A stretch of DNA of 64,000 bases from Chloroflexota bacterium (lineage in GTDB: Bacteria; Chloroflexota; Anaerolineae; Anaerolineales; Anaerolineaceae): positions 194,328-258,327 of the forward strand of contig SLTK01000009.1 in assembly GCA_004347695.1 (NCBI GenBank). Reading direction: 5' to 3'. The first letter of the stretch is position 1. Every line of letters starts with the position of its first letter. A model generated the notes under the pieces. The model was not told the origin of the DNA and did not search any database. It saw only the letters and a program-made list of their open reading frames with translations. Positions 26,486-29,931 of the stretch are shown piece by piece. A program made the position numbers and the translations under genes.

Positions 26486-29089
26486 ATGGCTGAGCTATCC
26501 ACATCAAAAAACACCATCTGGCATACGTCAACCATTGACGAAACTGGTTCCCAACTCGGTAGCAGCATAACGGCTGGATTGACTGATCAGGAGGCAAAAT
26601 CACGTCTCAACCGTTTTGGCCAAAATTCACTGACAGAAGAAAAGAAAGAATCTTTCTGGCATGAATTCTTTGAGGAACTACGCGAGCCGATGGTTCTGAT
26701 GTTGTTGGTGACGGGCGTGCTATATGCCATCTGGGGTGAACTCTCGGATGCGATTACTATTTTTGTCATCATCCTGACGCTCAACACCGTGGAGGTGGTT
26801 AACGAGCAACGTTCGAAAAAAGCCATCGCAAGTCTGCGCAAACTGGCTGAACCTACCACATCTGTGCGCCGGGGTGAACATTTTACTGAGATTCCGGTAG
26901 ATCAGGTTGTTCCAGGCGATTTGGTACTGCTTCGGGACGGACACCGCGTGCCAGCGGACGCTCGCCTGGTGGAAGCGTATGGACTTTCAGTCGATGAATC
27001 CGCGCTGACGGGCGAATCGTTACCCGTGGAAAAACAGGTAGAGCCTATTGCCAATTCGGAAATTCCGCTGGCTGAACGTCGCAACATGGTGTATTCCTCA
27101 ACGCTGATAAGCCGGGGAAAAGGCAAGGCTATCGTTGTCTCAACCGGCATGAATACCGAGATTGGACGCGTTGCCGGGATGGCGCGCCAGGTCAAGGAAC
27201 CGCACACACCCTTACAAAACATGATGTCAGAACTGAGCAGAGTGCTAATTTGGGTGGCGCTTGGTTTCAGCGTGCTGGTCCCACTGATCGGGATCATCTT
27301 TACCCACCAGCCACCCAAGCAAATGCTCCTTACCGGCCTCTCTCTGGCATTCGCTACCATTCCCGAAGAATTACCCATCATTATCACGATGGTTTTATCT
27401 TTAGGCGCATTCCGCCTGTCGAAAAAACATGCTGTTGCCAAGCGGTTGAGCGGCGTTGAATCTCTGGGATCGGTGACGGTGATTGCCACGGATAAGACCG
27501 GCACCCTGACCGAAAACCGAATGGAAGTTGCTCGTTTTGAACCGGAAGACGCCCGGTACCGTATGCTGGAAATTGGAATGCTCTGCAACGATGCGATTGA
27601 AGATGGATCGAGTTTCACTGGCGACCCTGTGGATATTGCGTTGTTGCAGTCAGCGCAAAAGTTCGGGGTCGATGTGAAAACAGAACGAAAAAACCGCCCG
27701 ATTATCCATGAATTTACCTTTGATAATAATCGCAAACGTATGTCCACGATTTCTCTGAAGAACGGGCAACCGTGGGCGGCAGTGAAAGGTTCTCCCGAAA
27801 CAGTGATGTCGCAGTGCACCCAGATGAGGATTGGCGACACCATTAAACCACTGCCTGCCGCCACGAGGCAGGCAATTTTGGACCGAGTGTCAGAGTTGGC
27901 CACTGATGGACTTCGCGTGTTGGCTTTTGCCGAGCGGAATTTACCACAACCCAACCTGGATCAGGAAACGGTTGAAAACGAGCTGGCTTTTATTGGTTTA
28001 GTCGGGCTGCAGGATCCTCCACGCCCGGAAGCTCGGGGCGCCATTGCCACCTGCCAGCAAGCTGGCGTGCGCGTCATCATGATCACCGGCGACCACCCGC
28101 TCACCGCCAGAGCGATAGGCAGGCAAGTCGGGCTTAATGGCGATCATGCGGTGGTTACCGGGCCGGAATTGGAACAGTTCTCTGACGATCAATTAAAAAC
28201 AGTTGTTCAGCACGCATCCATTTTCGCGCGCACCACACCGGAGCATAAATTGCGGATAGTCCAGGCGCTGCAGGCGTTGGGCGAACGCCTGGCGGTTACC
28301 GGTGATGGTGTAAATGATGCTCCGGCGCTATCGGCTGCCGATATTGGCGTAGCCATGGGTGTGACGGGTACGGACGTGGCTCGCGAGGCCAGCGATATGG
28401 TGTTGATGGATGACAATTTCACTACCATCGTCGCTGCGGTCAAGGAGGGCCGCCTGATCTATGAGAATCTCAAGAAGGGTGTGCGTTATTATCTGACCTG
28501 CAAATTAGCGCTGGTATTGATCAACCTGCTGCCAACACTCCTGTTGGTACCGGTACCCTTTGCCCCGGTACAAATCATTGTAATGGAGCTGTTCATGGAC
28601 CTGATGGCGGCGGCGTCTTTTGTGGCCGAAAAACCCGAGACGGATCTGCTGAACCAGAAACCGCGCGACCCTAAAGCGAAATTCATGGATAAAACCATGG
28701 TCAGCAGTATAGGTGTATCCTCATTGGGGCTTTTTGCCGCGGTGACCGTAGTCTATCTTTTTACCTGGTACAGCACGAAAGACGCTGTCACCTCACAGAC
28801 AATTGCCTTCTTTGGCTGGTTGATCGGGCATGTTCTGTTAGCCTTCAACATGCGCTCCGAGCATCAACCCATGCTTCATCTGGGTCTTACCAGCAACCAC
28901 GTGATGTTGCTCTGGACTGCTGCAATTGCTCTGTTCCTAATCGCAATCTCCACCATTCCAGGCGCTCAAAGCTTGATGAAAATCACAAGCCTGACAGGCT
29001 TCCAGTGGGGCATGATCCTGGCGGCGACCATTGTCGGGACATTCTGGATGGAAATCAAGAAAATGATTTTTTACCAAAAGAAAAAATAG
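26486..29089 (+). CDS. cation-transporting P-type ATPase (type II-like)
   Basis: TGES, DKTGTLT, KGSPE, DPPR, MITGDH, GDGVNDAPAL. Confidence 0.95.
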   Translation: MAELSTSKNTIWHTSTIDETGSQLGSSITAGLTDQEAKSRLNRFGQNSLTEEKKESFWHEFFEELREPMVLMLLVTGVLYAIWGELSDAITIFVIILTLNTVEVVNEQRSKKAIASLRKLAEPTTSVRRGEHFTEIPVDQVVPGDLVLLRDGHRVPADARLVEAYGLSVDESALTGESLPVEKQVEPIANSEIPLAERRNMVYSSTLISRGKGKAIVVSTGMNTEIGRVAGMARQVKEPHTPLQNMMSELSRVLIWVALGFSVLVPLIGIIFTHQPPKQMLLTGLSLAFATIPEELPIIITMVLSLGAFRLSKKHAVAKRLSGVESLGSVTVIATDKTGTLTENRMEVARFEPEDARYRMLEIGMLCNDAIEDGSSFTGDPVDIALLQSAQKFGVDVKTERKNRPIIHEFTFDNNRKRMSTISLKNGQPWAAVKGSPETVMSQCTQMRIGDTIKPLPAATRQAILDRVSELATDGLRVLAFAERNLPQPNLDQETVENELAFIGLVGLQDPPRPEARGAIATCQQAGVRVIMITGDHPLTARAIGRQVGLNGDHAVVTGPELEQFSDDQLKTVVQHASIFARTTPEHKLRIVQALQALGERLAVTGDGVNDAPALSAADIGVAMGVTGTDVAREASDMVLMDDNFTTIVAAVKEGRLIYENLKKGVRYYLTCKLALVLINLLPTLLLVPVPFAPVQIIVMELFMDLMAAASFVAEKPETDLLNQKPRDPKAKFMDKTMVSSIGVSSLGLFAAVTVVYLFTWYSTKDAVTSQTIAFFGWLIGHVLLAFNMRSEHQPMLHLGLTSNHVMLLWTAAIALFLIAISTIPGAQSLMKITSLTGFQWGMILAATIVGTFWMEIKKMIFYQKKK

Positions 29090-29247: not shown

Positions 29248-29730
29248 TTACGGCTCGATGGGATAACCGGCGTCCCGCCAGGCAGCAAATCCGCCTGAGA
29301 TCGCCTGGACATTAGCGAAACCGTTTTCCTGGAGGATGAGCGCCGCACCGGCGCTCGATTCTTCGGCCGGTCAGGTACAGTAGGTGATGATCCATTGATT
29401 TTTATCCAACTCGGCCATGCGGCTGCGTACCGTGCTGTAGGGGATGTTGAGTGCCCCGGAAACATGACCCGCTGAATAATATTCCGGGTCGCGCACATCC
29501 ACAAAAACCGCCGAACCGTCATCATAGGCTGCTTTGGCGTCCTGCAGTGAAATTCGCGCCACTTCCGGGAATGGAAATTCGGTAGTTGGGACAGGGTTCG
29601 TTTGCGCTGCCGGGATTTCTGGGCCAAGCACCTTGATGGTTTGCCAGATGACGACGCCCAGAATGATTACGGAGCCTAAAATCATCAGAATAATCGGAGT
29701 GGTTGGATTTTTTGGTTGTTTGCGCGCCAT
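29248..29730 (-). CDS. membrane-anchored rhodanese-like selenoprotein (UGA at 29371-29373 read as Sec120), 160 aa
   Basis: The track ORF stops at YCT-TGA. The frame continues PAEESSAGAALILQENGFANVQAISGGFAAWRDAGYPIEP-TAA, completing the rhodanese fold (VDVR, GHVSGALNIP, GGF.AW...G.P). SECIS-like hairpin follows. Confidence 0.85.
29338..29356 (-). promoter_or_regulatory. bacterial SECIS-like hairpin
   Basis: GAGCGCC-GGUGC-GGCGCUC: 7-bp stem, loop beginning GG, loop 21 nt downstream of the UGA. Confidence 0.7.
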
Positions 29731-29900
29731 ATAAATTTCCTTTGCAAGGAATGATGATCAGAGCCAACATTATAACTGCTCGTTGGAGATCTATTTTTTG
29801 CTTTGACCTATTTTGAGGATTTCGTGGCGGGGCGAACGTATCATTCGCCGCAAAAATCTTCATTAATAAACCAAACCTTGTTCATCACAGAGGTATGGAA

Positions 29901-29931
29901 CCCCTCACCTAACCTCTCCCCACGGGAGAGG
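29901..29931. repeat. CCCCTCACC..CCTCTCCC/GGGAGAGG-type intergenic palindromic repeat
   Basis: CCCCTCACCTAACCTCTCCCCACGGGAGAGG with CCTCTCCC/GGGAGAGG arms. Confidence 0.5.

Follow-up and report, generated by a model that had tools for sequence, protein, structure and literature searches.

The interrupted gene and its surroundings

The window, by which we mean the whole stretch of 64,000 nucleotides that was analysed, carries on its minus strand a rhodanese gene whose reading frame contains one in-frame TGA. The frame (29730..29248) opens with an ATG at 29730, runs through 119 codons to the TGA at 29373..29371 (codon 120), continues for 40 sense codons and closes with a TAA at 29250..29248 (Table 1). 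Read-through gives a product of 160 amino acids that begins with MARKQPKNPTT; residues 12-34 are hydrophobic, and a linker rich in Pro leads on to a rhodanese domain, in which the residues around the UGA read WIITYC(118)-T-U(120)-PAEESSAGAA. The initial annotation of this stretch had placed an in-frame TGA in an active-site loop, YCT-U-PAEESSA, and had proposed that the 40 codons after it complete the fold and that ORF callers truncate the protein. Our analysis bears this out: the TGA is present at codon 120, all 40 sense codons are there, the Pfam Rhodanese match crosses the TGA, and public gene calls end at 119 amino acids.

Table 1. Features of the rhodanese gene, in window coordinates
Feature	Position	Strand	Remarks
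TATAAT -10-like box	29769..29774	(-)	Upstream of the ATG by 38 nt; orthologues L088 and L090 have GTTATAAT equally far from the start codon
Ribosome-binding site AAAGGAAA	29736..29743	(-)	Assigned from the sequence; precedes ATG 29730
Full gene of the predicted selenoprotein, 160 codons and TAA stop	29248..29730	(-)	Signal-anchor, then linker, then rhodanese domain
N-terminal hydrophobic helix (residues 12-34), predicted signal-anchor, N-terminus inside	29629..29697	(-)	AF2 helix 12-34
Rhodanese domain (residues 62-153)	29272..29547	(-)	Pfam PF00581, 64 bits; Foldseek match 3tp9
Cys118 (TGT)	29377..29379	(-)	Column invariant in alignment A1; directly after AF2 strand 113-117
UGA codon 120, predicted Sec (U120)	29371..29373	(-)	TGA column 36/36 in extracted homologues; Cys there in CxCP homologues
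Bacterial SECIS hairpin GAGCGCCG-GUG-CGGCGCUC	29338..29356	(-)	Codons +6..+10 synonymously frozen in 36 homologues

Three positive charges (R3, K4 and K7) precede the hydrophobic helix. A signal peptide with a lipobox (e.g. LLTALAC) takes the place of this helix at seven homologous loci, and a Zn-ribbon with a TM helix precedes the domain at ten others. Given these charges and the lipobox and Zn-ribbon-TM homologues, the rhodanese domain is most likely located outside the cell, in line with the topology that had been predicted for it; the lipobox-bearing paralogues point the same way. At L031, L035-L037, L039, L040, L042, L046, L048 and L049, an N-terminal CxxC...CxxC zinc-ribbon is followed by the TM helix and the Sec-rhodanese domain, so that in this subgroup a single polypeptide would have its Zn-ribbon in the cytoplasm and its selenoprotein domain facing outward.

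The methyltransferase gene of a Cys-Ala-tail radical-SAM cassette lies 237 nt upstream of the rhodanese gene on the same strand. Within the gap between the two genes, an 8-bp GC hairpin (CCTCTCCC-GTG-GGGAGAGG, 29913-29931), with a T-run on the plus strand only, may be the terminator of the upstream operon. The initial annotation credited the rhodanese gene with a TATAAT box of its own. The box is present, and GTTATAAT is kept approximately 36-38 nt upstream of the start codon in two orthologues (L088 and L090); a scan by consensus, however, detected no full -35/-10 promoter at 29774..29769. The convergent neighbour (26486-29089) encodes a cation ATPase of the P2 type (Cation_ATPase_N/C). In four other loci (L027, L031, L037 and L039), a Sec-rhodanese gene is adjoined by a P-type ATPase from a different subfamily, an adjacency that may be coincidental.

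Selenocysteine machinery, homologues and the downstream hairpin

A selenoprotein at this locus implies selABCD elsewhere in the genome, as had been pointed out beforehand, and the machinery was indeed found. The assembly (3.3 Mb in 14 contigs) encodes a tRNA-Sec (72 bits; called SeC(tca) by ARAGORN), and a genome profile search returned selA (553 bits), selB (356 bits) and selD (355 bits), all above the curated cut-offs. The selD gene of this genome has an in-frame TGA of its own, in the classical SSCAGUASK site. In the same gene (locus L016, G000:C7:104468-105400), a SECIS-like hairpin, GGCGCAG-GUU-CUGCGCC, starts about 27 nt past the UGA. Elsewhere TGA is an ordinary stop codon, closing 271 of the genome's 938 open frames that are 400 codons or longer, and the genetic code is therefore not reassigned. 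A co-occurrence test with SelB had no power, since nearly all genomes of the class have SelB (67 of 75 scored above its cut-off), whether they carry the rhodanese gene or lack it.

The databases hold about 35 homologues with 44-96% identity, all of which stop at ...YCT and are 112-122 residues long. The nearest named homologue (92% identical) comes from a metagenome-assembled genome (MAG) labelled Bellilinea sp., and all named records found are MAGs; one orthologue is present on 693 contigs. A few database records appear 'full-length' with W at the Sec position, and these are code-4 gene calls of the TGA on short contigs. When 401 genomes of the class were searched in six frames, over 100 matches were obtained that contain a single TGA each and align on to residue 159. 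Among the matches listed, about 95 genomes of many families are represented, some with several copies or tandem arrays, and the clade occurs in at least about a quarter of the 401 sampled Anaerolineae genomes, often in multiple copies. Arrays with two to three TGA copies are located at G261:C42:14171-15595, G213:C108:24676-26095, G364:C132:3560-4426, G383:C91:9211-10338 and G326:C100:12075-12803. The window's own genome encodes a second Sec-rhodanese (C2:13250-13702) that is 42% identical and has the same TYCTU motif and hairpin.

From these homologues, 36 distinct sequences were extracted. Every one of them has the TGA in the same column and the motif (I/L)TYCT-U-P-x-E-E-(S/T)-S-A-R-A-A, and conservation is higher past the TGA (mean pairwise identity of 60% over 38 residues) than ahead of it (44%, likewise over 38 residues). 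In one homologue (P0010; L070 4001-4474), known from one metagenome contig only, the codon is CGA (Arg) while the hairpin sequence is intact; the change is very recent, or else the assembly is in error.

A search for relatives with Cys or TGA at codon 120 had been suggested as a check on the selenoprotein reading, and both kinds were found. Anaerolineae homologues lacking the TGA have Cys in its column (TYCACPHAEAE, CECP, CECW). Of the eight Cys forms from Anaerolineae, seven (CxCP) constitute a separate clade with 100/100 support in the tree, and the eighth (L050, CECW) is placed among the Sec forms. The pattern I[IV][TL]YC[TA]C[PQ]x[EA], applied to one genome per species, confirmed 573 relatives, of which the best 80 were read; since the pattern was scanned with Cys codons, this number refers to Cys forms and gives no count of Sec forms outside the phylum. 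The best 80 of the 573 belong to Thermoanaerobaculia, Steroidobacteraceae, Nitrospira, Desulfobacteraceae, Myxococcales and Anaerolineae. CxCP rhodaneses are represented by ITYCTCPAEESS in Thermoanaerobaculia, LYCTCPNEASAA in Steroidobacteraceae and Nitrospira, and TYCACPHAEAE in Anaerolineae. The Cys motif that the initial annotation had cited, YCxCP.E..SA, is thus real (YCTCPNEASAA, YCTCPAEESS). CxCP rhodaneses have the domain of the Sec clade as well as its C-x-(C/U)-P-x-E motif, and many of them are membrane-anchored or lipoproteins; they differ in having Cys for Sec and in lacking the AGCGCCCGUGCGGCG hairpin. The closest among the best 80, ITYCTCPAEESSGEA, equals the window motif with Cys for Sec and has neither SARAA nor the hairpin sequence, from which it would seem that the Sec forms owe their SARAA peptide, at least in part, to the constraints of the RNA element.

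The stem of the hairpin (29356..29338) begins 14 nt past the UGA and its loop lies 21-22 nt past it, the whole element covering about 14-33 nt. It can be drawn as 8 bp with a GUG loop or as 7 bp with the loop GGUGC; a 7-bp hairpin with a GG-starting loop 21 nt downstream of the TGA had been described in the initial annotation, and it is present in this second form. The folding energy is -14.0 kcal/mol for the window gene and -7.9 kcal/mol for the family core, GCGCC-CGUGC-GGCG(C/U), a 15-nt invariant element. The model of the bacterial SECIS (bSECIS) specifies a stem of 4-16 bp, a loop of 3-9 nt with a G in its first two positions, a distance of 16-37 nt from the UGA and an MFE of -7.5 kcal/mol or lower (PMC13188914). 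All four constraints are satisfied here, with a stem of 5-8 bp, a loop of 3-5 nt, a spacing of 21-22 nt and MFE values of -7.9 to -14.0 kcal/mol. The G stands at the first or second position of the loop and is followed by U (GUG in the window gene, CGUGC in the family). In the window's own genome, the hairpin core with a TGA at the right distance upstream occurs only at the two paralogues.

Codons +6 to +10 after the UGA are practically fixed in the extracted homologues (AGC 36/36, GCC 36/36, CGT 32/34, GCG 35/35 and GCG 36/36). Their codon entropy is 0-0.3 bit, compared with 1.2-2.2 bit at other Ser/Ala/Gly/Leu columns, and the Ser codon that adjoins the frozen block is written with five different codons. 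The closing, outermost pair of the family stem is G-C in 26 sequences, G-U in nine and G-A in one. No covariation was detected in the stem among the 36 sequences; the five core pairs never vary, which makes compensatory evidence impossible, and the support lies in the suppression of synonymous change. The 77-nt local fold did not stand out against shuffled sequences (z = -0.87), so that in this GC-rich gene the hairpin by itself is not beyond chance and its significance derives from the comparative data only. Stability was also considered as a discriminator and rejected: in these GC-rich genes, the same stretch has a mean of -8.7 kcal/mol in Cys forms and -10.9 kcal/mol in Sec forms. Only the invariance of the hairpin at the sequence level is informative, not its stability. 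The expectation of a SECIS just 3' of the UGA agrees with a hairpin that is kept at synonymous sites across 36 homologues. Judged by its sequence and that of its relatives, the gene very probably encodes a genuine selenoprotein, a membrane-anchored rhodanese-fold protein of 160 residues in which the UGA is read as selenocysteine.

Fold, active site and known families

The Pfam match that spans the TGA is well above its threshold of 22.2 bits. An AF2 model, computed from a 47-sequence alignment with Cys modelled at the Sec site, has a pLDDT of about 98 over the domain. It contains the TM helix, strand 113-117 and a coil formed by C118-T119-U120, and past the TGA a helix (121-135), a strand (141-144) and a second helix (147-153). 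A product ending at T119 would therefore miss a third of the fold. The best Foldseek matches are single-domain rhodaneses, among them 3tp9 (rmsd 1.1 Å over 104 columns), 6mxv, Alr3790, GlpE and Sud, at rmsd values of 1.1-2 Å.

In canonical rhodaneses, the catalytic Cys begins a basic, six-residue anion-binding loop, C-R-S-G-N-R-S. HMMER alignments to such proteins occur in both registers, with either C118 or U120 opposite the catalytic Cys; in the AF2 model and by MAFFT, C118 occupies the canonical catalytic position directly after the strand. The sulfurtransferase loop pattern (C-R/x-x-G-x-R/K) is absent, the loop being C-T-U-P-A-E-E-S with no basic residue. In the model, the three-residue turn C118-T119-U120 stands for the six-residue loop and a helix begins at P121. 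By general rules of helix capping, U-P-x-E looks like a capping box with U120 as the predicted N-cap. GlpE (1gmx), PspE (2jtq) and Sud (1qxn) have the same fold, and PspE and Sud are also extracytoplasmic; in contrast to the window protein, their basic loop of six residues has a single catalytic Cys, a second Cys or Sec is absent, and they contain no selenium.

A CxU rhodanese selenoprotein family is listed in reviews as 'form 3', a predicted selenoprotein to which no function is given, and is also entered as COG0607 form 2 (PMC13188914, PMC9312934). The corresponding NCBIfam model, NF041203 (rhodanese_LYCAU), describes a lone rhodanese domain in which Sec comes at the second position past a conserved Cys (Y-C-x-U), as in the window protein, and both are selenoproteins by prediction only. 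NF041203 is the best NCBIfam match for the window protein (75.4 bits) and for all 47 aligned members, with 56-98 bits against a cut-off of 115 and a best E-value of 2.3e-28 among the members. The match is colinear over profile positions 18-124 of 126 (107/126), the register being read at the level of the whole profile; the motif name, the 'CxU' listing (PMC13188914) and the colinear match all agree with a putative common Y-C-x-U register. None of 301 genomes of the phylum reached the cut-off (best 98.4 bits, E 7.5e-28), which indicates a separate clade that is not rescued by the NCBI pipeline. As the cut-off is missed, NCBI records carry truncated, generically named products of 112-119 aa ('rhodanese-like domain-containing protein' or 'hypothetical protein'). 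The clade differs from NF041203 by its motif TYCTU-P-x-E-E-S-SARAA, by its own invariant SECIS and by its N-terminal anchors (TM, lipobox, or Zn-ribbon and TM). TsoB (NF045694), a rhodanese/DsbD fusion-like selenoprotein, likewise has a rhodanese domain and is tied to membrane thiol-redox chemistry. It differs in having two Sec residues in a UxxxxU motif and another architecture, and the window protein matches it weakly (31.7 bits against a cut-off of 805).

Our literature search found no paper on rhodanese selenoproteins of Chloroflexota. The novelty claimed for the locus was overstated, as CxU rhodanese selenoproteins are already represented in reviews (PMC13188914, PMC9312934) and by the NCBIfam model; the Sec-rhodanese clade is new and abundant, and its kind is already catalogued. 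In other classes of the phylum, a CxU-type match with one TGA is found inside frames of 530-830 aa (e.g. G549:C1:1233721-1234053, G447:C14:5404-5733 and G517:C3:225907-226242), which suggests fusion proteins with a Sec-containing rhodanese domain.

Alternative readings and possible function

Taken as a whole, the locus is very probably explained by selenocysteine insertion at UGA 120 of an outward, anchored rhodanese that would have a C118/U120 redox or sulfur-relay site and its own transcript. Could the TGA instead be a true stop or a recent nonsense mutation that leaves a truncated rhodanese of 119 residues, the downstream frame being open by chance? All public gene calls end there and TGA is a common stop codon in the genome, yet the chance of this is negligible in view of a TGA that is kept in all extracted homologues and in the class-wide matches from many families, of downstream residues that are more conserved than those upstream, and of the two helices and the core strand that such a product would lose. 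Read-through in which a near-cognate tRNA inserts Trp, Cys or Arg, all standard amino acids, is very improbable as well. The one relative with Arg at the codon would favour it, whereas the full Sec machinery, a SECIS-fitting hairpin that is synonymously frozen only in TGA forms, and the identity of the standard residue in homologues, which is Cys, the usual partner of Sec, argue against it; the 'W' forms in databases are miscalls of the TGA. A partnership with the adjacent radical-SAM/methyltransferase/Cys-Ala-tail cassette, for instance in sulfur or selenium delivery, has a slim chance. It would fit the short distance to the methyltransferase gene on the same strand and the fact that the orthologues at L088 and L090 (74% and 58% identity) also follow a radical-SAM gene. 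However, BLAST of the radical-SAM genes at these two loci against the radical-SAM enzymes of the window gave no match, more distant orthologues adjoin unrelated genes (aldo-keto reductase, NrfHA or proline dehydrogenase), the intergenic gap holds a hairpin and the conserved upstream box, and the domain is predicted to lie outside the cell, while radical-SAM enzymes are cytoplasmic. The caution with which the link to the Cys-tail operon was first regarded was well placed, as the orthologues do not keep the cassette alongside, and we conclude that the rhodanese gene is an independent unit with no conserved link to that operon.

Under the preferred reading, selenocysteine insertion into an independently transcribed gene, we propose the following hypothetical sequence of events, in which (i) the gene would be transcribed on its own, outside the neighbouring radical-SAM operon; (ii) SelB with Sec-tRNA(Sec) would recognise the GC hairpin 14-33 nt past the UGA and insert selenocysteine at codon 120; (iii) read-through would complete the protein of 160 residues, with its N-terminal signal-anchor, Pro-rich linker and single outward rhodanese domain; (iv) on the outer side of the membrane, the U120 selenolate would act as the nucleophile towards a substrate with a sulfane sulfur or a disulfide; and (v) C118 would resolve this adduct through a selenenylsulfide within the molecule. 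What the analysis itself shows is the Cys/Sec pair, the fold, the Sec machinery and the signals for recoding; the mechanism at the active site is what we infer. Its basis is the AF2 model with Cys for Sec and the neighbours of the paralogues, not those of the window copy. U120 is proposed as the nucleophile since, in the model, a three-residue turn stands for the anion loop and U120 caps the helix. C118 and U120 would accordingly form a redox or sulfur-relay centre rather than that of a classical thiosulfate:cyanide sulfurtransferase, and such a site is our best guess from the model.

The neighbours of the paralogues bear on this chemistry. The second Sec-rhodanese of the genome stands at the head of a cluster (G000:C2:13250-18342; L092 751-5843) that also encodes a DUF1573 lipoprotein, a 2xCCG protein, an FAD_binding_4 oxidase, a Fer4 protein, a membrane-anchored DsbA-like thioredoxin and a membrane protein of 400 aa with no Pfam match. 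Among 33 homologous loci examined, Fer4+CCG neighbours occur in seven and DUF1573 in four. Clustering of neighbours within ±1.5 kb flanks, which includes noise from spurious GC-rich frames, left Fer4+CCG, DUF1573 and P-type ATPases, the last of different subfamilies, as the only real clusters. Together, the neighbours of the paralogues lend weak support to a predicted role in thiol or sulfur redox chemistry. A more specific version, in which the C-x-U turn, lying between a beta-strand and a helix N-cap, is a thioredoxin-like redox centre on a rhodanese scaffold that a lipoprotein or anchored protein exposes on the outer side of the membrane, working within a selenium-dependent extracytoplasmic thiol/sulfur system of Anaerolineae with DUF1573 (CGC) lipoproteins, DsbA-like proteins and membrane Fer4/CCG (HdrD-like) oxidoreductases, is speculative and, as it stands, unlikely. 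Somewhat unlikely too is a classical sulfane-sulfur carrier of the Sud/PspE type, which would pass a persulfide or selenopersulfide from one residue to a partner without a C118-U120 cycle. The rhodanese fold, the presence of Sud (1qxn), GlpE and PspE among the structural and sequence matches, and an outward domain as in Sud and PspE are in its favour, but the basic anion-binding loop is absent (C-T-U-P-A-E-E lacks Arg and Lys), a second chalcogen at +2 is invariant, and the paralogue neighbours are thiol-redox proteins.

The practical value of the finding is a correction of annotation, since the public records all truncate the clade to 112-120 residues or write Trp at the Sec position, and the NCBI selenoprotein model does not reach it. 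The invariant 15-nt SECIS provides a simple handle for finding further members. Outward lipoprotein and anchored forms are hereby added to the CxU rhodanese selenoproteins. Should the redox reading prove true, a major bacterial group of anaerobic digesters and sediments would be using selenium in its cell envelope.
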